From: an uncultured bacterium
GTDB taxonomy: Bacteria; Auribacterota; JACPWU01
NCBI GenBank assembly: GCA_964640155.1
Contig: CAZXEQ010000002.1
Location: 322,342-386,341, forward strand
Direction: 5' to 3'
Length of the DNA: 64,000 bases
Position 1 is the first letter of the stretch. The number at the start of each line of letters is the position of its first letter. The notes under the pieces are model-generated. The model saw only the letters and a list, made by a program, of their open reading frames with translations, ran no database searches and was not told the DNA's origin. Positions 13,595 to 63,427 of this stretch are shown here, in pieces. The position numbers and the translations under genes were made by a program.

Positions 13595-13632
13595 GAATTC
13601 ACGAGTGCAATAATTACTTGAGTCATTAACGG

Positions 13633-13727
13633 CAGGATTTGAAGGGAGGGCCGGGTGGCCGACTTGTAGGTCGAAGACCGGAAGGCACCAAATCCTCTCT
13701 CCGGAGACGGGCATGCTGTCGGGCCCC
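13633..13727 (+). repeat. tRNA-downstream element copy 2 (shorter or degenerate)
   Basis: GGATTTGAAGGGAG...GGGTGGCCGAC motifs shared with copies 3 and 4; ends near a partial match to the tRNA-Arg 3' end (tgtcgggc). Confidence 0.4.
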
Positions 13728-14282: not shown

Positions 14283-14371
14283 GGAGAGGTGGCTGAGTGG
14301 CCTAAAGCGACGGCTTGCTAAGCCGTTGTACTGTTAATTCAGTACCGGGGGTTCGAATCCCCCCCTCTCCG
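14283..14371 (+). tRNA. tRNA-Ser (anticodon GCU)
   Basis: Long variable arm, anticodon loop uuGCUaa, T-arm GGTTCGAATCC, acceptor ggagagg/cctctcc. Confidence 0.85.
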
Positions 14372-14445
14372 AAGTTTATTGGTAGCTTTAAAGTTAGCGG
14401 AAAGCAGCTTGAGCAAGAGGTCCATGTCGGTTATTGGGATTCGAA

Positions 14446-14564
14446 GGGAGGCCTGACATAGCATAATGCAAATCATGCACTGCATGATTTGCGACTGTTA
14501 GGAGGGCCGGGTGGCCGACCGGAGTGAGTGTAACGAACGTAGGCGCCGAATCCCCCCCTCTCCG
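14446..14564 (+). repeat. tRNA-downstream element copy 3
   Basis: GGGATTCGAAGGGAG start, internal hairpin (gcaaatcatgca/tgcatgatttgc), GGGTGGCCGACCGGAGTGA module, ends with cgaatccccccctctccgaagttta duplicating the tRNA-Ser(GCU) 3' end and flank. Confidence 0.5.
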
Positions 14565-14571
14565 AAGTTTA

Positions 14572-15261
14572 TCAAATCCATCCGGCAAAGAAAGCCACAC
14601 GTCCTTCTATATTCATTTTATAATTTTTGAAATTTTGGCTCAGAACTTTCTCCAAATCAGTCGCAGAATCTTTCTGATTTCCAAAAATTCCCTTCTTATT
14701 ATAGAGATTCATTAATTTTCTTCCTAGAAAGTTGTGTTCAATCCCTCCTCCCAAAATAGTTGTTCCAAAAATAACTCCTTGGGAACCCATCAAAGGTTTT
14801 AAGTGTTCAAAAACCTTTGCTTTATCTTGCATGTTTCCTGGAAGACAATGAAGAAGATATCCAAGTCCTATGGATGTGAAGTTTTTCTCATTCAATGGAA
14901 TGGGCTTGAGAACGTTTGCAACAAGTGTTTTAGGACGATACCGAGCAATGCGTCTGGTGGTGACCTCTAGACAATGAGGATTTAGATCCAAAAGAGTCAA
15001 AGAGAGATGCTGTGACGGGAATTGGCATTTATCTAAAAAGTAACCAGTTCCTACACCCACTTCTAAATGATGATCCGTTACATGATTGTTGTAAAAATCT
15101 AAAATTTTTTTTGTAGAACATTTCCATGCAAAATGATTTGAAAGTCCTAAAACAAAAAGATCATAGAGAGATAATACAAGCTTGGTATATACTGCTGCTC
15201 CAGAGTTTTCAGATGTATGTGTAGGGGCCATATGAACCTGGTTTTTCATGCAAGATAACAT
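14572..15261 (-). CDS. class I SAM-dependent methyltransferase
   Basis: LEVGVGTGYF glycine-rich SAM-binding motif I. Confidence 0.65.
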   Translation of the reverse strand: MLSCMKNQVHMAPTHTSENSGAAVYTKLVLSLYDLFVLGLSNHFAWKCSTKKILDFYNNHVTDHHLEVGVGTGYFLDKCQFPSQHLSLTLLDLNPHCLEVTTRRIARYRPKTLVANVLKPIPLNEKNFTSIGLGYLLHCLPGNMQDKAKVFEHLKPLMGSQGVIFGTTILGGGIEHNFLGRKLMNLYNKKGIFGNQKDSATDLEKVLSQNFKNYKMNIEGRVAFFAGWI

Positions 15262-21176: not shown

Positions 21177-22014
21177 AGTAAAATCTATTTGGAAAATTAA
21201 AGATCGAACGTTGACCTTTTCTCGGCGTCCTCTCATCATGGCTATTCTCAATGTTACTCCAGACTCTTTTTCAGATGGAGGGCGATTTTTAGATAGAGGA
21301 AAAGCAATTGAGCAGGCAATGATATTGGTTAAAGAAGGTGCGGATATTTTGGACATTGGAGGGATGTCAACACGTCCAGGTGCAGAGGAAATCCCTGTAG
21401 AAGAAGAACTGAGGCGTGTGATTGAAGTAATTCAAGCTTTGAGTTCTCAAATTAAAATTCCTATTTCTATTGATACCTATCGAGCGCAGGTTGCTGAACA
21501 GGCTTTAGCAGCGGGTGCCCATATTGTGAATGATATTGGGGCTTTAGGCCTAGATTCTAGAATGGCTTCTGTTGTGAGGGACATGGGGGCAGGTCTTATT
21601 CTGATGCATATGAGAGGAACTCCCCAGACCATGCAAAAAGACTTACATTATGAAGATTTACTAGAAGAGGTTTCGAAATTTTTAAAGAATCGTTTACAAG
21701 TTGCTCGAGAAAATGGAATTAGTGAGGAGCAAATGGTTGTGGATCCCGGTCTTGGTTTTGGAAAAAGTTTCGAGCAAAATTTAGAAATCTTAAAGAATCT
21801 AGAGTTCTTTCATCAGATGGAACGTCCTCTTCTTGTAGGCCCTTCCCGAAAATCATTCATTGGCCAAATCTTGCAGAATACTCCTGAAAAAAGGCTCTGG
21901 GGGACACTTGCTTCTGTCACGGCCTGTTTTTATCACAGAGCAAATATTCTTCGTGTTCATGATGTGCTCCCTGTTTTTGAGTTTTTAAAAGTCCTTTGTG
22001 AAATTGAGAAATAG
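21133..22014 (+). CDS. folP: dihydropteroate synthase
   Basis: ILNVTPDSFSDGG pterin-binding signature; overlaps 3' end of ftsH so true start is probably an internal Met. Confidence 0.85.
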   Translation: MYRRFMNPKPSLPPEVKSIWKIKDRTLTFSRRPLIMAILNVTPDSFSDGGRFLDRGKAIEQAMILVKEGADILDIGGMSTRPGAEEIPVEEELRRVIEVIQALSSQIKIPISIDTYRAQVAEQALAAGAHIVNDIGALGLDSRMASVVRDMGAGLILMHMRGTPQTMQKDLHYEDLLEEVSKFLKNRLQVARENGISEEQMVVDPGLGFGKSFEQNLEILKNLEFFHQMERPLLVGPSRKSFIGQILQNTPEKRLWGTLASVTACFYHRANILRVHDVLPVFEFLKVLCEIEK

Positions 22015-22030
22015 GTTTTGCTATAAAAAT

Positions 22031-22150
22031 ATATTCTTTAAGTAAGAAGCGGGTCCTGACGCTTGGCAGCCTCACCATACTTATGAAAAATTGCGCGCGG
22101 TGGGGCTTCCCCGCCAAGCGTCACCCATATCTATAAAGAACATACTTTTA
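22031..22150 (+). repeat. palindromic repeat element (RPE-like) copy A, intergenic folP-cdaA
   Basis: Aligns to the other six copies (gggtcctgac...aaaaattgcgcgcgg.ggggc..ccccgcc.agcgtcaccc); most diverged copy. Confidence 0.6.
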
Positions 22151-22244
22151 ATAAGTTCAACCGGAAAAGTAGATTTTTGAATTTTCCGTTATCTCTTTCG
22201 AATCAAAATGAAGTAAAATCTTTTTAACAACAAAGCGAGATTTT

Positions 22245-30805: not shown

Positions 30806-30875
30806 AAAGTATAGAATTTGTGATGAATCTTTTCAATGATTTATAACAATGTTTGCTCAATAGATATTGTAATTA

Positions 30876-30998
30876 AAAGTGTGTACTTTTAAAAAAGTGG
30901 CAGGGCCTGACACTCGTCATCCCCACCGTGCTCATAAAAAATTGCGCGCGGCGGGGCTCCCCGCCGAGTGTCACCCGTATTATAAAGGACACACTTTT
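30876..30998 (+). repeat. palindromic repeat element (RPE-like) copy B, intergenic greA-pbpC
   Basis: Terminal inverted repeats aaagtgtgtactttt / aaaggacacactttt, internal GC-rich hairpin gcgcgcggcggggctccccgccgag. Confidence 0.7.
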
Positions 30999-31008
30999 AT
31001 ACATGCTA

Positions 31009-33210
31009 TCACTCAACATGAATATTCACTTTTGCTGAAGCGCCTGTTTCGTCTGTAACGTAAATCTCATGCAGGCCAGGTTGAGGAATCCAAAAAAGAG
31101 CTTTTTCTGGACGGGTTTTCCCTATGAGAAGCCCATTCACAAACCACCATCGCCAGGAATGAGGCGATCCTCCTATAGACTGAAGAGGTAGTTTTTGATT
31201 TTTTTGAAAAGAGGGGGCGTCTAAGAAAAATTTTTGATTTGAAGAAATAGAAGAAATGGTTAGTTTAGAAATATCTTTTTCAAGTTCAATAGATTTTGCT
31301 AAACCTTCGTCCTGGATTTGAGGCCATGGTTTATTTTTCGGCTTTAAGCAAGATAGAAGTTTTAAAGTCAAGGGTGCTGCCAAAGTTTGTCCAACTAATT
31401 CATGAGAGCCTTTCCCAAGAGAGTTTCCAAGCCATGTTACAAGTGTGTATTCATGTGTTACTGCTACACACCAAGCATCTTTGTGTGCACTGCTTGTGCC
31501 TGTTTTCCAGGCAGGATTAAATGGAATGGCTTCAGGACAAACAGCGTAAGTTCGTTTGGGATCACTTAAGGCATTCAGTACTTGCCAGCATGCTTTTTGA
31601 GATAATATATTTTGATGGTGTGAATAAAAGTGCGGTCCTTTAAAAAGTGGCGGGTCCTGCCACTCGTCAGCCCCAACGTGCTCACTAAAAGTTGCGCGCG
31701 ATGGGGCCCCCCGCCGAGTGTCACCCGCATCTGTAAAGGACACACTTTTATCTACAGGATTTACATTTTGTGTGGCAGTGTCAGTATTAGATGTTAAAAG
31801 AGGAATATAAGTGACAGGCAGATGAATTCCTCCTCGCCCCAGTGTTGCAAAAGCTTCTGCAAGTTCTATAGGAGAAGCCTCGGCTCCTCCTATAGCTAAA
31901 GAAAGGCCATATCGATCTGGAAATTGCTCCAGTCTTTTAAATCCTAAACTTTGTAAAATTCCAACTACGCGAGCGATGCCTATTTTAGAAAGTAAAATCA
32001 TGGCGGGGATATTTCGACTTTGAGCAAGTGCTTCTGCCGCACACATAAAGCCTCTAAAAGTATGATCAAAATTGCTAGGGGTGTAGCCCTCCCAGCTCAA
32101 AGGAAGGTCTTTTAAAATTGTTGTGGGGGTGCAAATTCCTGCTTCAAAAGCGGCTGCGTAAATAAATGGTTTTAATGTAGAACCTGTTGAATAGTAACGG
32201 TTGGATAAATCTAAATTATTTGCATCGTCACATAAATTAATCGAGGCCAAACACTCAGAAGTTTGTGTGTTTAAAAGAACAAGTGAAAGAGCGTTGATCT
32301 GAGAAGATTTTAACTTTTCGAATTCTTGTTTGGCTATGAGGGTTAACTGCTCTTGAATATCTTTATCTAAAGAGGTTTTAAATTTTCCTTGTTGAAATTT
32401 TTCCTTTAAGGTCAGTAAGATGGGCAGAATTCCTGATTTTTTTTCTTGTGGCAGAGCTTGCCATGTGGCTTGAATAGGTTCTTCAATAGCGCGTGCGTAA
32501 TCTTGCTCAGAGATCATTTTTTCTGATAACATTCGAAACAAAACGTGATTACGTCTCTTAAGTGCACGTTCTATAAAACGATCTGGGCGATAGCGATTGG
32601 GACTTTGAGGAAGGCCTGCCAAAAGGGCAGCTTGGCTTAAAGAAAGATTGCGACATGAAATTCCAAAATATCTCCAGCTTGCAGCACCTACCCCGATTAA
32701 ATTCCCTCCCAAAGGACATCGATTGAGATATTCTGTCAAAATTTCATTCTTACTCATTTTTCTTTCTAATTGATAAGCACGAATAGATTCAATCAGTTTG
32801 GATGAGAAAGTCCGTGGTTTTGGATAACGTAAATGTTCAACTTGCATGGTAAGAGTGCTTGCGCCACGTATGATTTTCATGGCTTTAAAATCTTGCCAAA
32901 GAGCAGCAGCAACGCCAATCCAGTCCACTCCATGGTGTTGATAAAAACGATGATCTTCGACGGCAACAATTGCTTTAAAAAGATAAGGGCTTATTTCTTC
33001 TTCTTTTAATGGAAAATACCATTCATTTTTTTCTGAAACAAAAGCCCCCAAAGGCTTTCCTTCTCGATCTTCTATCCAAAGGCTGGGTGGAGGTTTTGGA
33101 GTGGGAGGATAAGACCAGGAGTAAACTGCAATAGAAAACGAAATACAAATAAAACTGAATACGCTAATAATTCCCAGTATGAAAATTTTGAAAGAATGTT
33201 TAATGGTCAT
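31009..33210 (-). CDS. pbpC: penicillin-binding protein 1C (transglycosylase/transpeptidase)
   Basis: N-terminal TM, glycosyltransferase motifs (EDHRFYQHHGVD; RGASTLTMQ), transpeptidase STGSTLKP; start overlaps stop of upstream A2M gene. Confidence 0.88.
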   Translation of the reverse strand: MTIKHSFKIFILGIISVFSFICISFSIAVYSWSYPPTPKPPPSLWIEDREGKPLGAFVSEKNEWYFPLKEEEISPYLFKAIVAVEDHRFYQHHGVDWIGVAAALWQDFKAMKIIRGASTLTMQVEHLRYPKPRTFSSKLIESIRAYQLERKMSKNEILTEYLNRCPLGGNLIGVGAASWRYFGISCRNLSLSQAALLAGLPQSPNRYRPDRFIERALKRRNHVLFRMLSEKMISEQDYARAIEEPIQATWQALPQEKKSGILPILLTLKEKFQQGKFKTSLDKDIQEQLTLIAKQEFEKLKSSQINALSLVLLNTQTSECLASINLCDDANNLDLSNRYYSTGSTLKPFIYAAAFEAGICTPTTILKDLPLSWEGYTPSNFDHTFRGFMCAAEALAQSRNIPAMILLSKIGIARVVGILQSLGFKRLEQFPDRYGLSLAIGGAEASPIELAEAFATLGRGGIHLPVTYIPLLTSNTDTATQNVNPVDKSVSFTDAGDTRRGAPSRATFSEHVGADEWQDPPLFKGPHFYSHHQNILSQKACWQVLNALSDPKRTYAVCPEAIPFNPAWKTGTSSAHKDAWCVAVTHEYTLVTWLGNSLGKGSHELVGQTLAAPLTLKLLSCLKPKNKPWPQIQDEGLAKSIELEKDISKLTISSISSNQKFFLDAPSFQKNQKLPLQSIGGSPHSWRWWFVNGLLIGKTRPEKALFWIPQPGLHEIYVTDETGASAKVNIHVE
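31627..31750 (+). repeat. palindromic repeat element (RPE-like) copy C, in frame inside pbpC
   Basis: Reverse complement translates without stops as KSVSFTDAGDTRRGAPSRATFSEHVGADEWQDPPLFKGPHF within the PbpC ORF. Confidence 0.7.
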
Positions 33211-36200
33211 GAATGTGAATGGGTTGCAATTTTCATTGTTTCATTGTCACGACTGATGCTGTTAATTGAAATATCATACATGCATTCAGCTTTTACAGGG
33301 GGAACAGTAAAAGTTCCAGGAGTCACAGCCCTGGCTAGATAAGTATATTGTGCTTTCCCTTTGTCTAACATTTTTCCGTAGAGCACAAGACGATCATCAC
33401 GAATATCGATATGACTATCCATAAATGTAGTTTGAGTAGGGTCTTTGAGAATAGAAGCTGAAGTTGCAAGCCTTGGATTTTCAATTTCAAGTCCAGCGGG
33501 AAGCAAATCTTCAATGACCATATTGTCATAACCCAAAGGACATTCTAGATGTATCTCTACTTGTATCAAGTCTCCACTACAAATTTTATCTAGGGCGATT
33601 GCGTGTCCCTGTTGATCAAGATATCTTTTTCTCACACTTATCCCATGATCTTCATTTAAAGGAGGCTCTTTGGCAAGGCCTGTGATGCTCCATGCAACAT
33701 AGCCCTTTGTTTTTTCAGCTCCTGAGATTTTAACTGAAAATTCTTTCCCATTCAGAAATTTATTTGAAGAATTCCAGAGAAGAGAATCTCCATTCCCTGT
33801 TTCAGAAATTTTCTCTGTCCCCGCCCAAAGTTCGGCTGATGTAAAAGGTTCTCCAAAATCTGTTTCCTTTAAATAAGACCCCAGTGCAAGAAGAGCAAAA
33901 GCATGATCTTGCGTACTTTGCCATTTTTTTTCGCCGCCGGCTTGGGCAAGTTCTTTAACCAATTTGGGAAGGGCTGGATTTTGTGGATCAAGTTCAATCA
34001 GACTTTGAATTAAAATAGCTTGATCTCGAATAGGGGACCCAATGTTTCCAGATAGGTCTCTGTTTTGGCGAGGGTGAGGTAGATTCTGAGGAATTAACTT
34101 TAAGGCCAAATCTCGTCTGCCAGAATAAAGCCAGGCCAGGGCAAGATAAAAGCGAGTTGAAGGATGGATGCTAGAGGAGATAGAAGTTGGGAGAGTGGAA
34201 GGTCTTTGAAAAATATCTTCCAGACGTGACATCATGGATCTCTGGGGATATCCCGCTTTAGCAAGAACAAAACAGGCATAAGCCTGAATCTCTAAAATAT
34301 TGGGTTGATCAGAACTTTCGTTTAATAATTTTCGAACATAATTTAAAAGTCGATCGCGAAAATCAGTTGGAATAGAGAAGCCGGCGTTTTCTGCTTCGGT
34401 GATAAAATGTGTTGCATAAACACTGGCCCAGCTCCAGCTCTCAGTATAGCCAGGCCACATAGCAAGTCCCCCTTCAGCTGTTTGCATACTGATCAAACGA
34501 TTAAGAGCTGTTTCAACTCTTTGATGAATGTATTGAGTATTAAATGGTTCTGGGAAAATCTTCTCTCCTAGTTTTTGCAATCCAATGAGAGGAAAGGTGG
34601 TGCTAACCGTTTGTTCGGCACATCCATGGGGGTATTCATTGAGATAATCCAAAGCCTTTGTCAGATTTAAAGTGGGAAATGGAGTTACGTGAATATTCAA
34701 CTGTGTTGTTCCCTCAATCCATTTTTCTGGAATTCTGATTTTAAAATCTTGATGGGGTTTAAGGGTTGCATATCCTCCTTCAGAAATTGAAGGACAGGCA
34801 GGACGAATAGGGAATATGAGATTTTGCTGATATTCTTGTCCATTGAGTTGCGCTTTGATTTTAAGACGAGCTATTCCCATTTTATTCTTAGCTTTCAAAG
34901 GAATGGTGATCACGGTTTGAGCGTTATCGGGAATGGAGTTTGTAGTAAAATTGATTTTTCTTTCGGAGGAGTGTGGAAAATAAACAGGACTTTTATTGTC
35001 TAGTTCTATTGAGAGGTTAGCAATGCCTTCACTTCCCGTATGATTGAAAATGACAATCGGTATTTCAAAATGATCATTATTTGCAGCAAAGCGAGGAGTA
35101 GTACTTTGTAACATGAGAGGAGATTTAACAAAAATGGGCTTAGATGCTGATCCAAAAAATTTTTTAGAATGAGCAATGGCCATGACTCGCAATTGACCTG
35201 TGAATTCTGGAAGACGAAAATCAACTTTTACGTTTCCATTTTCGTCACAGCGAAGTACTTTTGAAACAAGTGCAACATTTTTCATACGTTGTATAGACAA
35301 TGGAGTTAAATGACGTGGCTCATAACCTCCATCTCCTCCCACCGAACTTTTAGGATTTATTTTTGGAATCTCTGGGAAAAGTTCTCCATAAAGATCTGAA
35401 ACAAATACGTTCAAAGCTCGATTTCGATGAAAGAATGAAAAAGGATCTGGGGGTGAGAAATTCGTGAGTTGAAGAATCCCTTCATCTACGATTAACAAAG
35501 TGACCCTTGCATTTTTAGCAGGTTTATTTTGAGGGGTTAAAACTTTTGCTTCAACACGGATTTTGTTTTTGGGCAGGATTTCTTTTTTTGTTTGAATCTT
35601 TATTTTCAGCTTTTGATCGTTATTGTTGATCGCAAGGCGAGTCACGCCAAAAGCACGATGGATTTTCCATGGAGCCTTGGAATGGACGGGCTGAATCACC
35701 GTCGCACTTACATAGGCATTGGGACGATAGCTTTCTAAAATATCAATCGGAATAGATATATGAGATTGTGTCATGGTCAGAACTTTGTGAAAGAGAACAT
35801 TCTCTGTTTCTATCGTTAAAAGAAGTTGCCCTGGGAAAGGACTGCGAACAATGACTTGCGCTTGACCTCCAACTTTCAAAGAGGACGAATATCTATTAAA
35901 GTGCGTCTTTTTAAAAAGAAGTGGGTCCTGCCGCTCGTCAGCCCCATCGTGCTCAGTAAAAGTTGCGCTCGATGGGGCCCCCCGCCGAGCGTCACCCACA
36001 TTTTTAGAATCATTTTTTAATTCTTTGCCCATAGGAATAATTTCAATTTGTAATTGCTCTGGGTTCTCTCGAGAGACTGAATCCTCCCAGCCATTTTCAC
36101 TGCTCACATAAAATCCATGTGAAGTGAAGCTGCCTGTTTGAGAATCTTTGATAGCAATCACATAAGACCCTTCACTGGGAGGAATGATTTCAAAATGTCC

Positions 36201-38948
36201 TTTCTCTTGTTCTAAAATTGCATAAGAAGAAGATGCTTTTTCCAGTATACGTGTTGAGTCATAATGATAGCTCCCATCGCGATAGGTCATGATATTGTTC
36301 CAAGTCTCACGAAAAAGTTGTATCTCCATTTGTTTCGAAATCTTGGCTATTTGCCCATGCCCAGAAACACATGCAATATCAAAAACATACGGAGAACCGG
36401 GCTGAGCTTTTTGATTTTGTTGAGGACGTATGCCGACATAATATGGAACAGTATCAATGAAAACTCTTTTTGTGGCACTGACAGCCCTACCGCCCATTTC
36501 TTGAACACTTCCCAGAACAGTTAATTGCCAGGGACCCGTATACGAGGGGGTTTCTTTTATAAGAGAGTTCGGGGGGTGATTGAGAAGAAGAGAAAGATCT
36601 ACTTTCCATTCACCTTTGCCTTTCTCATTTAATTTAATCTTAGGCGACTCAATCGATTGTCCTTGGGGAAGAATACCTCCAAGTGTTTTAAAAGCATTGG
36701 CAGAATCTGTGAAAGTCCATTCTTTCCAATGTTTGGGTTTGAATGGTGCAGGATCGAGACGACTTGAAAGTGTTGCATCTGTTCCTGAAGCAGGTTGTCC
36801 AAAAAGATAGTTTGCTGCAATATGAACTGAAAGAGATTGTGAGGATAAAGTATAGCGATCATGGCGAATATTTTTTAAATTTAAAGCAACTTTCATTCTA
36901 TCGGGAATAAATTCCTCAACAAAAAAAGAAGTTGTTCCAAATGTTTTAGCATCAGCATCTTTTGATTTTGGAAGGCCAATGGATACAGTCCAATTTCCAG
37001 TGGGAATATCTTGAGGTAATTTGACAGAAAGGTAAACCATTCCAGAACTGTCCACCTTGGCCATGTGTCCTTTCCAATTTCTCCCATCGGGCCTATAAAA
37101 TTGACACCAGACAGGAAATTCTTCGGGGGTACTTAAATGAGGCCCTCGAATGATTGCCCAGAGATGGACTTTTTCACCGGGTCTATAGGCTCCACGTTCA
37201 GAGTAGACAAAAGCTTCATAGGCTTTGGATGAATAAGGACTCCCAGAAATATCAAAATGAGAATAGGAAAGTTCGCTTGTTCTTAAATCTAACCATGTCA
37301 AATGGGCGGGCTCTGTGGCAGCGTTAAAATTTGCAACTACTACGACAGGTTTCTCATCGTTAGAGGTTTCAATGGTATTGATTTTAATAATACCATTTTC
37401 ATCAGAAATTCCTTCTCCCAAAAGTTGATTCTTATTGGAAAATAAGCGAATGCGTACATGCTCCATGGGTTTACCTGTACTTAAAGACAGAGTCCAAACA
37501 AAAAGACCATGAGGGAATCTCTTGGCCACTAAACCAATGTCAGATAATGTAACAACCGTTGTATCGGATAACTCCCAGGCATATCCTTGATTCTCATTCT
37601 CGGCTTTGATTTGAATTTCATAAACCCCATTTTGCTTGAGATTTTCAGGCAGGAGCTCATCCAAGGATAAATGAATATCCTGAACTTTATTTTTCTCCAT
37701 TTCTAATTTAAGAGATTTTTGTGCGATTACTTGACTAAAATGATGAAGACCCATCCATTGATTCTCATAAACCGTGTTTCTCCAATGGACAATATTATTC
37801 TCATACATTTTTGTGAGAGTGATTTGAATGTTTTGAACATTGATAGCGTGAGCTAGAATCATTCGATTCCCTTTAGCTCCCAAAAACCCATGATCCTGTT
37901 CAAACCACACAGAAGCCTTACGATCTGGGATAAAAACACTAAAGAGATCTTCCTGAGGATAATTTTTCGAATCATTTTTGATGCGAGGTGCATTTACTTT
38001 CAATGCATATCGGTTTCCAGGGATAAAATCTGCCTCAAGACTGACTCCAAACCATTCTCGAATCAGTGTGAAGGGTAAAATAGGTTCAATAGAAAGAATT
38101 TCTTTTAAAATTTCTATATCGACATCATTATTGAAATAAAGTTGCAGTCTAATTTTTCCTTTTGAAGAAGAATAAGGTTCTACTTTTGTAATCATTAAGT
38201 GGCGGTTAAGGGTCAATTGCGTTTCATAAAGATTGGTTAATCCTAAAGGCCCACTAATCCCACATAGTCCTTCTCGAATCCTTACAATCACTTGAAGATA
38301 AGAGGATATATTTTGATAGAGAAAAGGAGTGGGCTCTGTCATCACGCGTATCACATTTGCGGTTACGCCTTCATAAAGGCGAAAAGGGATTTTTTGATGA
38401 ACCAGAGATTCAATCTCCAGAAATTTTGCAACTTCAGTTGGAAGCATTTTGTCGTTAAATTCAATTTCAATCATAAACTGATTTTTTTCGTCAAAGGCTG
38501 CTTGGCGTACAGATAAAATTTGCAAGGCTGGGGTTTTGACGGTTGCAGAATACGACTGATTCAGTAAAAACCCTTCCTTGGACTTTAAAGAATGAAGAGG
38601 AAAAGTAAAAGTAAAGGCTGTTGCTTTGGGGAGGTCTTTCTGGGGTGTAAAAGTAAGCTTTCGAGTGTTCACCCATTCCCAATGTCCAGGGATGAGGTAA
38701 GACGCATCGCCTGAACTCTTGATGATGACTTTGGATGAAACATCTTCACAAACCATATCTAAATTAAATTCCCAGGATAAAACAGGCCGTGTTCCTGTCT
38801 CAATATTGTTTCCTGGGTTAAAGCGTTCTATTTTAAGAACATTGAGCGTTTTTAATTGATAAGCATGATGAAATGCTGCCCAGGCAAGAATATTTGTAAT
38901 TGCAAAACAAAAAACGGTTATCCAAAATCGTTTGTGTAACATGAACAT
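33207..38948 (-). CDS. alpha-2-macroglobulin family protein (bacterial A2M, thioester-containing)
   Basis: 1913 aa, N-terminal signal/anchor, thioester motif GCAEQ, large MG-domain architecture; genetically coupled to pbpC. Confidence 0.9.
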   Translation of the reverse strand: MFMLHKRFWITVFCFAITNILAWAAFHHAYQLKTLNVLKIERFNPGNNIETGTRPVLSWEFNLDMVCEDVSSKVIIKSSGDASYLIPGHWEWVNTRKLTFTPQKDLPKATAFTFTFPLHSLKSKEGFLLNQSYSATVKTPALQILSVRQAAFDEKNQFMIEIEFNDKMLPTEVAKFLEIESLVHQKIPFRLYEGVTANVIRVMTEPTPFLYQNISSYLQVIVRIREGLCGISGPLGLTNLYETQLTLNRHLMITKVEPYSSSKGKIRLQLYFNNDVDIEILKEILSIEPILPFTLIREWFGVSLEADFIPGNRYALKVNAPRIKNDSKNYPQEDLFSVFIPDRKASVWFEQDHGFLGAKGNRMILAHAINVQNIQITLTKMYENNIVHWRNTVYENQWMGLHHFSQVIAQKSLKLEMEKNKVQDIHLSLDELLPENLKQNGVYEIQIKAENENQGYAWELSDTTVVTLSDIGLVAKRFPHGLFVWTLSLSTGKPMEHVRIRLFSNKNQLLGEGISDENGIIKINTIETSNDEKPVVVVANFNAATEPAHLTWLDLRTSELSYSHFDISGSPYSSKAYEAFVYSERGAYRPGEKVHLWAIIRGPHLSTPEEFPVWCQFYRPDGRNWKGHMAKVDSSGMVYLSVKLPQDIPTGNWTVSIGLPKSKDADAKTFGTTSFFVEEFIPDRMKVALNLKNIRHDRYTLSSQSLSVHIAANYLFGQPASGTDATLSSRLDPAPFKPKHWKEWTFTDSANAFKTLGGILPQGQSIESPKIKLNEKGKGEWKVDLSLLLNHPPNSLIKETPSYTGPWQLTVLGSVQEMGGRAVSATKRVFIDTVPYYVGIRPQQNQKAQPGSPYVFDIACVSGHGQIAKISKQMEIQLFRETWNNIMTYRDGSYHYDSTRILEKASSSYAILEQEKGHFEIIPPSEGSYVIAIKDSQTGSFTSHGFYVSSENGWEDSVSRENPEQLQIEIIPMGKELKNDSKNVGDARRGAPSSATFTEHDGADERQDPLLFKKTHFNRYSSSLKVGGQAQVIVRSPFPGQLLLTIETENVLFHKVLTMTQSHISIPIDILESYRPNAYVSATVIQPVHSKAPWKIHRAFGVTRLAINNNDQKLKIKIQTKKEILPKNKIRVEAKVLTPQNKPAKNARVTLLIVDEGILQLTNFSPPDPFSFFHRNRALNVFVSDLYGELFPEIPKINPKSSVGGDGGYEPRHLTPLSIQRMKNVALVSKVLRCDENGNVKVDFRLPEFTGQLRVMAIAHSKKFFGSASKPIFVKSPLMLQSTTPRFAANNDHFEIPIVIFNHTGSEGIANLSIELDNKSPVYFPHSSERKINFTTNSIPDNAQTVITIPLKAKNKMGIARLKIKAQLNGQEYQQNLIFPIRPACPSISEGGYATLKPHQDFKIRIPEKWIEGTTQLNIHVTPFPTLNLTKALDYLNEYPHGCAEQTVSTTFPLIGLQKLGEKIFPEPFNTQYIHQRVETALNRLISMQTAEGGLAMWPGYTESWSWASVYATHFITEAENAGFSIPTDFRDRLLNYVRKLLNESSDQPNILEIQAYACFVLAKAGYPQRSMMSRLEDIFQRPSTLPTSISSSIHPSTRFYLALAWLYSGRRDLALKLIPQNLPHPRQNRDLSGNIGSPIRDQAILIQSLIELDPQNPALPKLVKELAQAGGEKKWQSTQDHAFALLALGSYLKETDFGEPFTSAELWAGTEKISETGNGDSLLWNSSNKFLNGKEFSVKISGAEKTKGYVAWSITGLAKEPPLNEDHGISVRKRYLDQQGHAIALDKICSGDLIQVEIHLECPLGYDNMVIEDLLPAGLEIENPRLATSASILKDPTQTTFMDSHIDIRDDRLVLYGKMLDKGKAQYTYLARAVTPGTFTVPPVKAECMYDISINSISRDNETMKIATHSHS
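35898..36010 (+). repeat. palindromic repeat element (RPE-like) copy D, in frame inside the A2M gene
   Basis: Encodes VGDARRGAPSSATFTEHDGADERQDPLLFKKTHF inside the A2M ORF, homologous to the peptide encoded by copy C. Confidence 0.65.
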
Positions 38949-39008
38949 TCTCCAAAATCCAAAGTTTTTTAGTTAGAAATAGTAGGAAAATAATCTCACA
39001 TATAAACT

Positions 39009-39156
39009 TAAGTCCTCGGGCTTTTCACCGTCCTTTAGGATGAGGTAAGAAACGGGGCCTGCCACTCGTCAGCCCTACCGTGCTCATGAAAAATTGCGCG
39101 CGGGGCGGGGCTCCCCCCGCCGAGTGTCACCCGTATTGTAAAGGACACACTTTTTT
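39009..39156 (+). repeat. palindromic repeat element (RPE-like) copy E, long variant
   Basis: Core as other copies plus 5' extension gtcctcgggcttttcaccgtcctttaggatgaggtaagaaacgg shared with copy G. Confidence 0.7.
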
Positions 39157-39368
39157 ACACACGATCGGGAAAATTTTCTTAAAAACACTTTGAGATTTTC
39201 GAGAAGCAGGGTCAAGAAGAAAACAGAAGTGATTTATAAAATACGAAGTAACTCGCTGAAGGAGAGAAAGTAGGGATAAAATTTTTTTGAAAAATTATTT
39301 TACAATTAAAAAAACTTGAAGATTTTTCTAAATCTCAAGCTCGAAGTTTAAGGGATTTCTCAAAAGGA

Positions 39369-40508
39369 TTAAAGCTTTCTTACTTTGACATGAGCTTCTT
39401 CTAATAAGCGTAGACTTACATCCCCTACAGAATAGGCATGACTATAAACAACTTCTTTGATGCCACTATTGATAATCATTTTGGTACACATCAGACAAGG
39501 TGAAAAAGTAGAGTAAATTGTAGAGTCTTTAATGCTGACCCCATGATAAGCCGATTGTGTGATCGCATTTTCTTCAGCATGTGAGCATAAACATTCATCG
39601 AGCTGAGTCCCTTGTTGGGAGAAGCTGTTGCATCGTAGACAACCTCCATCCATACAATTCTTAGTACCACGGGGCGTTCCATTATAGCCCGTGGCAATGA
39701 TGCGTTTGTCTTTAACAATAACCGCCGCGACTTTTCGTTTGATACAATTGCTGCGTAAGGCAACTACTTTAGCAATTCCTATAAAATAATCATCCCAGCC
39801 AGGTCGACTAGAATTTGTTCCATATTTTTTTAATACCTCAATCACTTGTTCGTAAATTTTTTCAAGAGATCCTGCATTCATTAAAGAAGTATCTGAAATG
39901 GCTTGTGTTTGGTCTAGTTGTTGATGGTTAGGATTTTGAGATGAACGTTCTGCGTTTTCCAGACGTATAAATTCTTCTAGAGTCTGAGGGTCATTCTCTC
40001 TTCCTCGGGCTTTGATTCGCTCAAAACGTAGTTCCAGAGGAGCATCAATAAAAAGCAGAATAAAATCTTTTCTTTTCTTGAGGGATTTAGCTTCTTCAGG
40101 ATTGCGGATAGAATCTACAACATAATTTTTATCAACATCTAGAGTAGACGAAATCTTATCTGCTAAAACGGAAGGTCCAAACTGACTACGAAGTTCATTC
40201 CCAACTTGAATTAAATTTTCGCGTGTGATTTGAGTCCGTCGATTTTTGAGTTCATCTCGAAGAACATCCGAAAGCGAGGAATAAATAAACCCCCGTTGTT
40301 TTAAAAATTCTGCGATAACTCCTTTGCCTGAGCCATTTCTTCCAGTGAGTCCAATAATCACAAGATTAGAATCCTTTCTTATCAATTCTACTTTCTCGAT
40401 AGATTCTACTATGAGGCGAGTTGTTGGACAACCATTGTTTAAACTAAAAGCGAGAACGATTTTATAATTAAAAGTGTGTACTTTTAAAAAAGTGGCAGAG
40501 CCTGCCAC
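39369..40508 (-). CDS. P-loop nucleotide kinase / dCMP-type zinc deaminase fusion protein
   Basis: N-terminal IIGLTGRNGSGKG Walker A (CoaE/dNMP-kinase-like), C-terminal deaminase with CSHAEENAI and SPCLMCTKMI zinc motifs; the annotated Met start lies inside repeat copy F so the true start is uncertain. Confidence 0.7.
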   Translation of the reverse strand: MAGSATFLKVHTFNYKIVLAFSLNNGCPTTRLIVESIEKVELIRKDSNLVIIGLTGRNGSGKGVIAEFLKQRGFIYSSLSDVLRDELKNRRTQITRENLIQVGNELRSQFGPSVLADKISSTLDVDKNYVVDSIRNPEEAKSLKKRKDFILLFIDAPLELRFERIKARGRENDPQTLEEFIRLENAERSSQNPNHQQLDQTQAISDTSLMNAGSLEKIYEQVIEVLKKYGTNSSRPGWDDYFIGIAKVVALRSNCIKRKVAAVIVKDKRIIATGYNGTPRGTKNCMDGGCLRCNSFSQQGTQLDECLCSHAEENAITQSAYHGVSIKDSTIYSTFSPCLMCTKMIINSGIKEVVYSHAYSVGDVSLRLLEEAHVKVRKL

Positions 40509-40596
40509 TCGTCAGCCCCACCGTGCTCATGAAAAATTGCGCGCGGCGGGGCTCCCCCCGCCGAGTGTCACCCGCATATATAAAGTACACACTTTT
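40471..40596 (+). repeat. palindromic repeat element (RPE-like) copy F, overlapping the 5' end of the kinase-deaminase ORF
   Basis: Near-identical to copy B (aaagtgtgtacttttaaaaaagtggcag.gcctg...). Confidence 0.7.
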
Positions 40597-40831
40597 CTAC
40601 ACATCATCGCAAGAACTTCAATTAGAATATTTTAATTTTACTTTAATGATTTTTTAACCTTTCTACTGAGATAATGCCTCTGTTAAAAAAGGCAGCATTG
40701 TTTCAGAGATAAAAAAATCTTTTCTTCAAATAGGGGGTTATGGTATATTTTGCGCACCTTACTCATCATGTGGGATGATGAGAGGATGTAGTTCAAAGTT
40801 AATTATTTAAATCAAACCAAGGAGATCAGTA

Positions 40832-41398: not shown

Positions 41399-41428
41399 TT
41401 TCTCAAATTTGAGAAATTATTTTTTAAA

Positions 41429-41456
41429 GGGCGGGATTATTCCCGCCCTTTTTCTT
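41429..41456 (+). terminator. rho-independent terminator after the OMP gene
   Basis: Perfect hairpin gggcggga-ttat-tcccgccc followed by tttttcttttt. Confidence 0.65.
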
Positions 41457-41770
41457 TTTAGAGATTTTTCAGAAAAAGGGTGTTCTTTGTAATGCGGATG
41501 ACACTTGTCGGTGGGACTGACAAGTGGTAGGAACCACTATTCCTACAAAGAATACACTTGCTATAATTAATGTTTATTTACATTCTTTAAATTGGTATTC
41601 TTATCCAGTATTAGCTTCGCCCTTGGAGGGGAGCCAACGGGCCTATCCAACATTGTGAGAAAAACATTCAAATCCTATTAAAGGGATATTGAAAGTTTTT
41701 CTTTCTCTAGATTTTGGCCCTGTCAGTATTCGAATGTCCAACGTGTGTCTTGGGGAGCCATAAAGCTATT

Positions 41771-43078: not shown

Positions 43079-43267
43079 ACATTTTTGTACAATCTTGTAT
43101 TTCTCGCCATTTTTGTTCATTCATATGCAAGTGCAATATCTTATCAGCATCCATCTCCTCACTTCTTAACTTGTTATGATTTAAATAGTTAAGACTATTT
43201 TTGTTGTTATTTTTATTTTTGGCATAAAACTTGATTATCCATAGGATGAGTGCTTCCTCGTTCAAAT

Positions 43268-43312
43268 CCCGCGGAAGGTAGGCAAAAACCTGCTTTCCGT
43301 GGGAATTTTTTT
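43268..43312 (+). terminator. candidate rho-independent terminator
   Basis: Stem cccgcggaagg / cctgctttccgtggg (with G-U pairs) followed by aattttttt. Confidence 0.4.
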
Positions 43313-43325
43313 GATATCCCTAATA

Positions 43326-43475
43326 AAAAGTGTGTCTTCGGACTTTTCGCCACCTTTAGGATTATATAAGAAACGGGTCCTGCCACTCGTCAGCCCCACC
43401 GTGCTCATAAAAAATTGCGCGCGGTGGGGGGCCTCTCCGCCGAGTGTCACCCGTAGTGTAAAGGACACACTTTTT
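43326..43475 (+). repeat. palindromic repeat element (RPE-like) copy G, long variant
   Basis: TIRs aaagtgtgtc / aaaggacacac; 5' extension cttcggacttttcgccacctttaggat shared with copy E. Confidence 0.7.
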
Positions 43476-43580
43476 GCGCACGATTGATTTTCCTCATTGG
43501 TCCTCAAATTCTACAGTTCTGGTCCCTATGACGTGAGTATGCATAAGAAAAAGTTTGAGGGTATTTAAAATTCGGATAGA

Positions 43581-44224: not shown

Positions 44225-44277
44225 GTTTCTTTGTGCAGTAGGAAATTGCAAAGGAATCTCACAGACTTGAAGAGCTG

Positions 44278-44412
44278 ATGGGAGGATTTGAAGGGAGCTC
44301 CGACGCCTTTATGATGCTGATCATGCGGTGCATGATCAGCGACGTCTAGTCGGAGCGGGTGGCCGACCGGAGTGAACGAAGTGAACATAGGCGCCAAATC
44401 CCATCACCAGCT
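44278..44412 (+). repeat. tRNA-downstream element copy 4
   Basis: GGGAGGATTTGAAGGGAG start, long hairpin (gctccgac...gatgctgatcatgc-ggt-gcatgatcagc...gtcggagc), GGGTGGCCGACCGGAGTGA module, ends with caaatcccatcaccagctgtt duplicating the tRNA-Thr 3' end. Confidence 0.5.
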
Positions 44413-46475: not shown

Positions 46476-47672
46476 ATGGCTAAGGAAAAATTTGAGAGAA
46501 AGAAACCACATGTAAACGTGGGAACGATTGGACACGTAGATCATGGTAAAACGACATTGACCGCAGCATTGACCAAAGTACTGTCAAAGAAGGGTCAAGC
46601 CAAAGAAATCACCTATGCCGACATCGCCAAAGGCGGAGTCGTGCGAGATGACTCAAAGATTGTAACCATTGCCGTATCACACGTAGAATACGAAAGCACC
46701 AATCGACACTATGCGCATATCGATTGTCCAGGACATGCCGACTATGTCAAAAACATGATCACTGGAGCAGCCCAAATGGATGGAGCCATTCTAGTGGTAA
46801 GTGCAACTGATGGACCCATGCCCCAAACAAGAGAACACATCTTATTGGCAAGGCAAGTCGGAGTACCTAACATCGTCGTATTCTTAAACAAATGTGACAC
46901 CGTAGATGATCCAGAACTATTAGACCTCGTAGAACTAGAAGTAAGAGAACTATTAACACAATATCAATTCCCCGGAGACAAAACTCCTATCGTCAGAGGA
47001 AGCGCATTAAAAGCACTACAGGGAGACACGAGCGAACTGGGAGAGCCATCCATTGCTAAACTACTAGAAGCATTGGACAGCTACATTCCAGAACCCAAAA
47101 GAGAAATCGACAAACCCTTCCTCATGCCCGTAGAAGACGTATTCAGCATCACTGGAAGAGGAACCGTAGCAACGGGAAGAATTGAAAGAGGCATCGTAAA
47201 AGTAGGAGAAACCCTAGAAGTCGTAGGACTCAAACCCACTAAAAACGTCGTCGTCACTGGAGTAGAAATGTTCCGAAAAGAACTAGACCAGGGACAAGCA
47301 GGAGACAACGTAGGAGCCTTGCTTAGAGGAGCAGAAAAAGACGACATCGAAAGAGGACAAGTCTTAGCGGCACCCGGAAGCATCAAGCCGCATACCAAAT
47401 TCAAAGCAGAAGTCTATGTCTTGAGCAAAGAAGAAGGAGGAAGGCACACACCCTTCTTCAATGGATACAGACCTCAATTCTACTTCAGAACAACGGATGT
47501 GACTGGAGTGGCGAACCTAGCAGGTGGAATAGAAATGGTAATGCCTGGAGACAACACGGCATTAGAAGTAGAGTTGATCAGTCCAATTGCAATGGACAAG
47601 GGCTTAAGATTTGCAATCCGAGAGGGAGGCAAGACCATCGGAGCAGGTAGAGTTACTGATATTATTGCGTAA
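46476..47672 (+). CDS. tuf: elongation factor Tu (copy 1)
   Basis: [11 protein letters not shown]1 motif, [12 protein letters not shown]; 398 aa; nucleotide-identical to copy at 62231-63427. Confidence 0.95.
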
Positions 47673-62230: not shown

Positions 62231-63427
62231 ATGGCTAAGGAAAAATTTGAGAGAAAGAAACCACATGTAAACGTGGGAACGATTGGACACGTAGATCATG
62301 GTAAAACGACATTGACCGCAGCATTGACCAAAGTACTGTCAAAGAAGGGTCAAGCCAAAGAAATCACCTATGCCGACATCGCCAAAGGCGGAGTCGTGCG
62401 AGATGACTCAAAGATTGTAACCATTGCCGTATCACACGTAGAATACGAAAGCACCAATCGACACTATGCGCATATCGATTGTCCAGGACATGCCGACTAT
62501 GTCAAAAACATGATCACTGGAGCAGCCCAAATGGATGGAGCCATTCTAGTGGTAAGTGCAACTGATGGACCCATGCCCCAAACAAGAGAACACATCTTAT
62601 TGGCAAGGCAAGTCGGAGTACCTAACATCGTCGTATTCTTAAACAAATGTGACACCGTAGATGATCCAGAACTATTAGACCTCGTAGAACTAGAAGTAAG
62701 AGAACTATTAACACAATATCAATTCCCCGGAGACAAAACTCCTATCGTCAGAGGAAGCGCATTAAAAGCACTACAGGGAGACACGAGCGAACTGGGAGAG
62801 CCATCCATTGCTAAACTACTAGAAGCATTGGACAGCTACATTCCAGAACCCAAAAGAGAAATCGACAAACCCTTCCTCATGCCCGTAGAAGACGTATTCA
62901 GCATCACTGGAAGAGGAACCGTAGCAACGGGAAGAATTGAAAGAGGCATCGTAAAAGTAGGAGAAACCCTAGAAGTCGTAGGACTCAAACCCACTAAAAA
63001 CGTCGTCGTCACTGGAGTAGAAATGTTCCGAAAAGAACTAGACCAGGGACAAGCAGGAGACAACGTAGGAGCCTTGCTTAGAGGAGCAGAAAAAGACGAC
63101 ATCGAAAGAGGACAAGTCTTAGCGGCACCCGGAAGCATCAAGCCGCATACCAAATTCAAAGCAGAAGTCTATGTCTTGAGCAAAGAAGAAGGAGGAAGGC
63201 ACACACCCTTCTTCAATGGATACAGACCTCAATTCTACTTCAGAACAACGGATGTGACTGGAGTGGCGAACCTAGCAGGTGGAATAGAAATGGTAATGCC
63301 TGGAGACAACACGGCATTAGAAGTAGAGTTGATCAGTCCAATTGCAATGGACAAGGGCTTAAGATTTGCAATCCGAGAGGGAGGCAAGACCATCGGAGCA
63401 GGTAGAGTTACTGATATTATTGCGTAA
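62231..63427 (+). CDS. tuf: elongation factor Tu (copy 2)
   Basis: Identical in nucleotide sequence to 46476-47672 as far as I can read it; canonical fusA-tuf-rpsJ position. Confidence 0.95.

Follow-up and report, generated by a model that had tools for sequence, protein, structure and literature searches.

A MITE family with apparent in-frame insertions in a bacterial alpha-2-macroglobulin gene and the adjacent pbpC gene

A segment of the alpha-2-macroglobulin (A2M) gene found in the window, the 64,000-nucleotide stretch of DNA from an uncultured bacterium analyzed here, is best explained as a copy of a mobile element of ~148 bp, a non-autonomous DNA transposon (MITE), that survives passively in a linker of the protein without selection on the frame in which it is read. 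The probability of this reading is put at about 85%. Fifteen family members were found, 8 of them in the window and the other 7 in related assemblies; 2 of the 15 lie inside genes, one in A2M and one in the adjoining gene for penicillin-binding protein 1C, pbpC (Table 1).

RESULTS

An intact A2M gene contains a copy of a dispersed repeat

The A2M gene lies in a window of ~38% GC, and its product retains the GCAEQ thioester motif as well as the RDDR and ECMY motifs and can be aligned to the A2M structures of E. coli and Salmonella. A preceding sequence-only reading had reported a repeat translated inside this open reading frame (ORF) at positions 35898 to 36010. The repeat was confirmed, given that the 1,913-aa gene is intact and that an nhmmer profile of the family matches 35897 to 36019 at E=9e-36, the A2M copy itself being among the 7 copies from which the profile was built. 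The copy also matches a pattern with 26 specified bases that occurs 7 times in the window and not at all in shuffles. The reported right boundary did not hold; the conserved core extends to 36019, placing position 36010 inside the element. Residues 983 to 1021 of the protein read NVGDARRGAPSSATFTEHDGADERQDPLLFKKTHFNRYS, the 34-aa peptide quoted for this copy is derived from window positions 35898 to 35999, and GAPSSATFTEHDGADER is one peptide of the insert segment.

Comparison with orthologs supports the view that this segment is a repeat insertion and not ancestral A2M sequence. The best ortholog, encoded in the related locus L002, shows 58% identity (the next ones, ~41%); its sequence runs from KIKISP straight into VRVGEKTEVVIRSPF, and 55 residues of the window protein are missing. 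At the same site, 27 other orthologs carry between 0 and 90 unrelated residues, and none carries the repeat segment. In the ortholog alignment, the site is hypervariable in length.

The insert lies between two Pfam domains, bMG6 (residues 839 to 948) and A2M_BRD (residues 1022 to 1161). In an AlphaFold2 model of residues 835 to 1170, computed with 39 homologs (mean pLDDT, 83), the element-encoded residues 987 to 1020 form a coil of pLDDT <50 that joins two confident beta-sheet domains. A location within the protease bait region was considered and rejected: the bait region of the E. coli protein ECAM (residues 923 to 942 [PMC4498604]) aligns ~160 residues downstream, so that, unlike the ECAM bait, the insert of the window protein lies outside this region. 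Both genic copies of the repeat probably occupy length-tolerant, disordered surface segments. As judged from the intact ORF, the peptide encoded by the A2M insert would be translated, and the earlier proposal that the element is tolerated when translated agrees with its being read through by this ORF.

The outer inverted-repeat arms of the A2M copy are degraded. Inspection of its flanks revealed no confident target-site duplication; the pair AGGACGAAT and AGGAATAAT (7 of 9 positions identical) was rejected as a candidate because the spacing is not a multiple of three.

Table 1 Repeat copies and host genes in the window
Feature	Position	Strand	Details
A2M gene	33207..38948	-	1913 aa, intact; domains bMG3, MG2, bMG5, bMG6, A2M_BRD, A2M, bMG10
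pbpC (penicillin-binding protein 1C)	31009..33210	-	733 aa; 4-nt overlap with A2M stop
A2M repeat copy, conserved core	35897..36019	+ (family orientation)	gene reads - strand, residues ~983-1021
pbpC copy, 148 bp	31614..31761	+	core 31626-31749; inside pbpC
Canonical copy, 148 bp	30863..31010	+	greA-pbpC intergenic; duplication GCTCAATA / ACTCAACA
Diverged copy	22014..22161	+	starts at last base of folP-like TAG stop
Long-arm variant copy	39005..39167	+	~60 nt upstream of A2M start codon; left end approximate
Canonical copy, 151 bp	40458..40608	+	perfect 15-bp inverted repeats; duplication GCGAGAAC / GCAAGAAC
Long-arm variant copy, intergenic	43313..43487	+	directly after terminator-like hairpin
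Short degenerate copy, internal deletion	41474..41563	-	sole - strand copy in window

The repeat has the structure of a MITE

Repeat search and alignment located copies at ~22029, 30880, 31630, 35901, 39032, 40475, and 43353, and the nhmmer profile added an eighth, degenerate one on the other strand (41474 to 41563). The full element measures 148 to 151 bp, with a long-arm variant of 175 bp, and is thus within the MITE size range (less than ~300 bp, without a transposase gene). In the canonical copies, the core is bounded by a perfect 15-bp terminal inverted repeat, AAAAGTGTGTACTTT and AAAGTACACACTTTT, that continues for ~12 nt beyond the core to GAT...ATC termini, making an imperfect inverted repeat of ~27 bp in total. 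A canonical copy folds over its whole length into a GC-rich hairpin (-57 kcal/mol; z = -7.7); every copy forms a single long hairpin, with the outer stem missing from that of A2M.

Immediately beyond the termini, 11 to 12 nt outside the conserved core, is a direct repeat of 8 to 9 bp. For 9 copies, the summed match between left and right flanks was 55, against 34.7 ± 3.0 in a null of 5,000 mispaired controls in which the left flank of one copy was combined with the right flank of another. Matches of at least 7 of 9 positions were found in 5 of the 9 copies, which did not occur once in the controls. At two measured sites, the pbpC copy and the copy at 30863 to 31010, element and duplication together amount to 156 bp, that is, 52 codons.

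With Rfam 15, only tRNAs scored above the gathering threshold, and over a stretch holding two copies there was no match at E ≤ 1; plasmid and phage collections contained no match to the element. Among the window ORFs adjoining the copies, none was identified as a transposase; across the window and the retrieved loci, neither a transposase nor a parent insertion sequence sharing the ends of the element turned up. Two other identities were rejected: REP/BIME sequences are extragenic units of 20 to 40 bp with GTAG/CGTC heads, whereas the present unit is ~148 bp long and occurs inside genes, and a terminator consensus scan flags none of the copies. Size, inverted repeats, duplication, and filled and empty sites all fit a non-autonomous DNA transposon, and the element is accordingly classified as a MITE.

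The copies are oriented along the plus strand in 7 of 8 cases, whatever the direction of the genes. In two intergenic copies, one end coincides precisely with the stop codon of a gene, and the protein end is kept each time. The pbpC stop codon TGA (31009 to 31011) consists of a flanking T and the GA of the copy's GAT terminus, the stop before insertion presumably having been TAA, as in the relative L001; the last base of the TAG of a folP-like gene (22012 to 22014) is the first base of the copy that follows. Terminator-like hairpins (41426 to 41451 and 43267 to 43304) immediately precede the copies at 41474 and 43313, an arrangement that could stem from preferential insertion where transcription units end. 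On the minus strand, a 379-aa ORF (39369 to 40508; kinase-like AAA and cytidine deaminase domains) has a GTG start inside the copy at 40458 to 40608. Its Pfam domains start only at residue 52; translation therefore probably begins farther downstream, and the copy is probably not a genic insertion.

Filled and empty sites in relatives

Protein affinities ally the host to Chlamydiae-like bacteria; the best PbpC homologs are a protein of GCA_041906865.1 (75% identity) and one labeled Chlamydiae bacterium (61%). A contig of GCA_041906865.1, L001, is syntenic with the window over the end of A2M, pbpC, greA, a BamB-like gene, and a DUF4352 gene. Three sites of the A2M-pbpC-greA locus are filled in one of the two sequences and empty in the other. 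The copy at 30863 to 31010 is missing from L001, as is a 53-residue stretch of PbpC that holds the repeat; conversely, L001 carries a copy in its A2M-pbpC spacer (601 to 725), where the window has no copy and the genes overlap by 4 nt. In the window, the greA-pbpC-A2M locus (30863 to 39167) contains 4 copies in 8.3 kb, and with the different, fifth site filled in L001, it looks like a local insertion hot spot.

Additional intergenic copies were found in another contig of GCA_041906865.1 and in four SRA-derived assemblies (SRR32051687, SRR35975716, SRR8893623, and SRR31893870). DNA patterns from the right half and the center of the element gave no match among the GTDB r220 representatives or the JGI metagenome contigs in any of the four scans; the family therefore appears to be restricted to a little-sampled clade. 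Annotated short ORFs of 44 to 83 aa in the relatives (L003, 2063 to 2233; L004, 315 to 506; L005, 4170 to 4421; L006, 2598 to 2732) are mostly translated intergenic copies and likely represent spurious database proteins.

The A2M and pbpC copies look like separate insertions

The pbpC copy is flanked by an 8-bp duplication, TATATTTT at 31606 to 31613 and TACATTTT at 31762 to 31769; in the closest pbpC ortholog (P0067; 75% identity), the site is empty. Its strand of reading and its core phase are those of the A2M copy (GDTRRGAPSRATFSEHVGADEWQDPPLF versus GDARRGAPSSATFTEHDGADERQDPLLF). The homology between the two encoded peptides noted in the sequence-only reading is well founded, with 91% DNA identity across a common 85-nt core. 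The further statement that strand and frame are the same applies to the core; in the right arm, the phase differs by a 1-nt indel. Read in the genic frame, the two cores differ by 2 synonymous changes and 6 non-synonymous ones (pN/pS, ~1).

The pbpC copy is nearest to a copy in another assembly, L004 (91%), followed by those of L003 and L005a (85%) and then by the A2M copy (81%), which is the most diverged of all (67 to 81%). These contrasts in nearest relative and in divergence point to separate insertions, as had been proposed, and to different ages for the two. A derivation of both segments from local duplication or gene conversion is very improbable. The genes are adjacent, the copies are 4.3 kb apart, and the A2M copy has its nearest relative in that of pbpC (81% overall, 91% in the 85-nt core). 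However, the pbpC copy is nearer to copies in other assemblies than to that of A2M, the flanks differ, those of the pbpC copy including an 8-bp duplication of its own, and the features common to the two, ACTAAAAGTT and CGATGGGG, mark a subfamily that is present in relatives as well.

Several frames of the element are open

To describe the coding capacity of the element, its frames were labeled by phase at the invariant TTGCGC motif, and stops were counted over 13 copies. On the plus strand, frame a is stop-free in 8 of the 13, frame c in 4, and frame b in 2; on the minus strand, frame d, the one read in both genes, is stop-free in 6, frame e in 5, and frame f in none. In each genic copy, 4 of the 6 frames (a, c, d, and e) lack a stop, compared with an average of 1.5 open frames in intergenic copies, an excess for which survivorship in a single frame is not a sufficient explanation. 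The family is somewhat stop-poor, its open frames numbering 25 where shuffles gave 16.1 ± 3.3, although the copies are not independent of each other.

In the canonical intergenic copies of the window, frame d is closed by a TAA in an A-run of the left arm. The genic copies and several intergenic copies of relatives have one A fewer, which takes this TAA out of frame d; given those intergenic copies, the variant with an open frame d existed outside genes. The shared reading strand of the two genic copies follows for the most part from 7 of the 8 window copies lying along the plus strand and both genes along the minus strand. The same frame would then arise by chance in roughly one in two or three such pairs, and only two cases are at hand.

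Further genic insertions were sought with a protein profile that stacks frames d, e, a, and b (c and f were left out) and that gave 35 to 60 bits at ~85% identity in a local simulation. Among 1.84 billion representative proteins, it recovered A2M, four short ORFs that lie on intergenic copies (in frame d twice and in a and b once each), and three unrelated repeat proteins, and no further genic case. This search had low power, the library being clustered at 50% identity, and it missed pbpC itself, probably because clustering hides insert-bearing proteins behind insert-free representatives. Likewise, concatenated peptides of four element frames had no match among 5.8 billion proteins, a search in which the A2M and PbpC proteins of the window were also missed.

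Alternative explanations for the genic copies

The sequence-only reading suggested that the element is tolerated, or selected, in one translatable frame. In its full form, this is the view that the repeat is a coding element whose insertions are kept or favored in one frame, with the peptide GD.RRGAPS.ATF.EH.GADE.QDP.LF as a selected module. It can draw on the shared strand and core phase of the two genic copies, on four intergenic copies in relatives that are also stop-free in frame d, on the membership of both hosts, which are envelope proteins, in one operon, and on the stop-poor character of the family, subject to the non-independence of the copies. The frame census weighs against it: the other frames proved equally open, 4 of the 6 being open in the genic copies themselves, the opposite-strand frame a is open more often than d, and the canonical copies of the window have a TAA in the genic frame. 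Moreover, the cases number just two and come from neighboring genes of the same orientation, in a region where 7 of 8 copies point one way; pN/pS is near 1, the peptide is modeled as disordered, and the low-power search of representative proteins added no genic case. Frame selection is therefore considered unlikely.

Even less probable is a role at the RNA level, in which the hairpin would act in the operon mRNA as an attenuator, RNase site, or stabilizer and translation would be incidental. The hairpin is highly stable whichever strand is folded, the alignment fold includes 6 pairs in which at least one sequence is changed on both sides, and other bacterial MITEs, Correia and ERIC, affect mRNA processing (PMC2229807). 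Nevertheless, these pairings are explained by the DNA palindrome needed for transposition, Rfam offers no match even at E ≤ 1, the terminator scan flags none of the copies, the copies have no consistent orientation relative to the flanking genes, and the outer stem is gone from the A2M copy. Passive survival of a MITE within a tolerant linker remains the reading that best accounts for these observations.

Other features of the window

A second repeat family (14372 to 14580, 44225 to 44410, and 13595 to 13700) lies directly 3' of tRNA-Ser(GCT) and tRNA-Thr(TGT) and, in part, of tRNA-Arg(ACG). Its core is GGGCCGGGTGGCCGACCGGAGTG...GTAGGCGCCRAATCCC, and its end duplicates the 3' end of the tRNA (14346 to 14378 versus 14539 to 14571), which resembles the duplicated attachment site of a small integrated element. 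The window also includes a pair of genes the size of EF-Tu (398 aa each), one (46476 to 47672) after a tRNA cluster upstream of rplK-rpoBC and the other (62231 to 63427) after a 696-aa gene downstream. The pair shares 100% identity over the first 300 nt, an indication of gene conversion.

DISCUSSION

The history that best fits these observations begins with a MITE that would have been moved by a transposase among uncultured bacteria of a Chlamydiae-like clade, one copy entering the A2M linker between the bMG6 and bait-region domains and another entering a variable loop of pbpC. At the typical length of 156 bp, if it applies, the downstream frame would be preserved whatever the position of insertion, because element and duplication together span 52 codons, and survival of the ORF would then be set only by stops in the phase read. 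With about a third to half of the orientation and phase combinations free of stops, a sizeable share of genic insertions would be non-truncating. Gene-breaking insertions would be purged, and those in length-tolerant, disordered linkers would persist, the extra ~50 residues being a near-neutral passenger. Rickettsia palindromic elements (RPEs), as well as ERIC, Correia, and YPAL elements, have been described as acting in this way (PMC2229807, PMC10969869). A tentative extension, which we regard as possible although doubtful, is that this is a coding-compatible MITE that arose independently of the RPEs and was shaped by selection for survival inside the genes of a compact genome of the intracellular type, yielding a multiple-of-three length and three to four open frames. 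If so, complete genomes of the clade would be expected to encode many more proteins that translate the element in several frames.

In-frame insertions of MITEs and RPEs in conserved genes are documented (PMC2229807, PMC10969869), and the present repeat is a new family of this known kind. It is RPE-like, going by the description of RPE-1 to RPE-3 (Ogata et al. 2000, 2002) as summarized in those two articles: a palindromic repeat of 100 to 150 bp in a bacterium of the intracellular type, with intergenic copies along with in-frame copies in intact genes, at sites compatible with the fold and with an apparently neutral effect. The likeness is one of description, and the family is treated as an analogue of the RPEs, not as a member, given that those belong to Alphaproteobacteria (Rickettsiales) whereas the host here is Chlamydiae-like. 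Furthermore, the target duplication of RPEs is listed as unknown (PMC2229807, Table 1), in contrast to the 8-bp duplication and the filled and empty sites found here, and nearly half of the RPE-1 to RPE-3 copies are genic, compared with 2 of 15 in this family.

Similarities extend to ERIC/IRU (127 bp), the 107-bp Correia/NEMIS element, and YPAL, which are likewise small, with inverted repeats, a whole-length stem-loop, and target duplication. ERIC, Correia, and YPAL also have contiguous open frames and are occasionally fused in frame to host genes (Delihas 2007/2008; PMC2229807). These are elements of Proteobacteria with TA or short duplications, whereas the present family has GAT...ATC ends, an 8-bp duplication, and a combined length of 156 bp, a multiple of three. 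In the literature, no report was found of in-frame insertion of a palindromic element in Chlamydiae.

The host genes themselves conform to a known arrangement. According to Budd et al. (2004), as cited in PMC4498604, A2M and PbpC form a gene pair for periplasmic defense and repair; as in that pair, the genes are adjacent in the window and the thioester motif is kept, with ECAM and SaA2M (4RTD, 4U48) as available structures. The repeat leaves the understanding of A2M and PbpC function unchanged, although the annotated A2M and PbpC proteins each gain ~50 low-complexity residues from it. Its significance lies rather in extending the presence of selfish DNA within genes that encode proteins, best known in Rickettsia, to a Chlamydiae-like lineage, and in the added mechanistic detail of defined termini, an 8-bp duplication, and filled and empty sites that are unusually clear.
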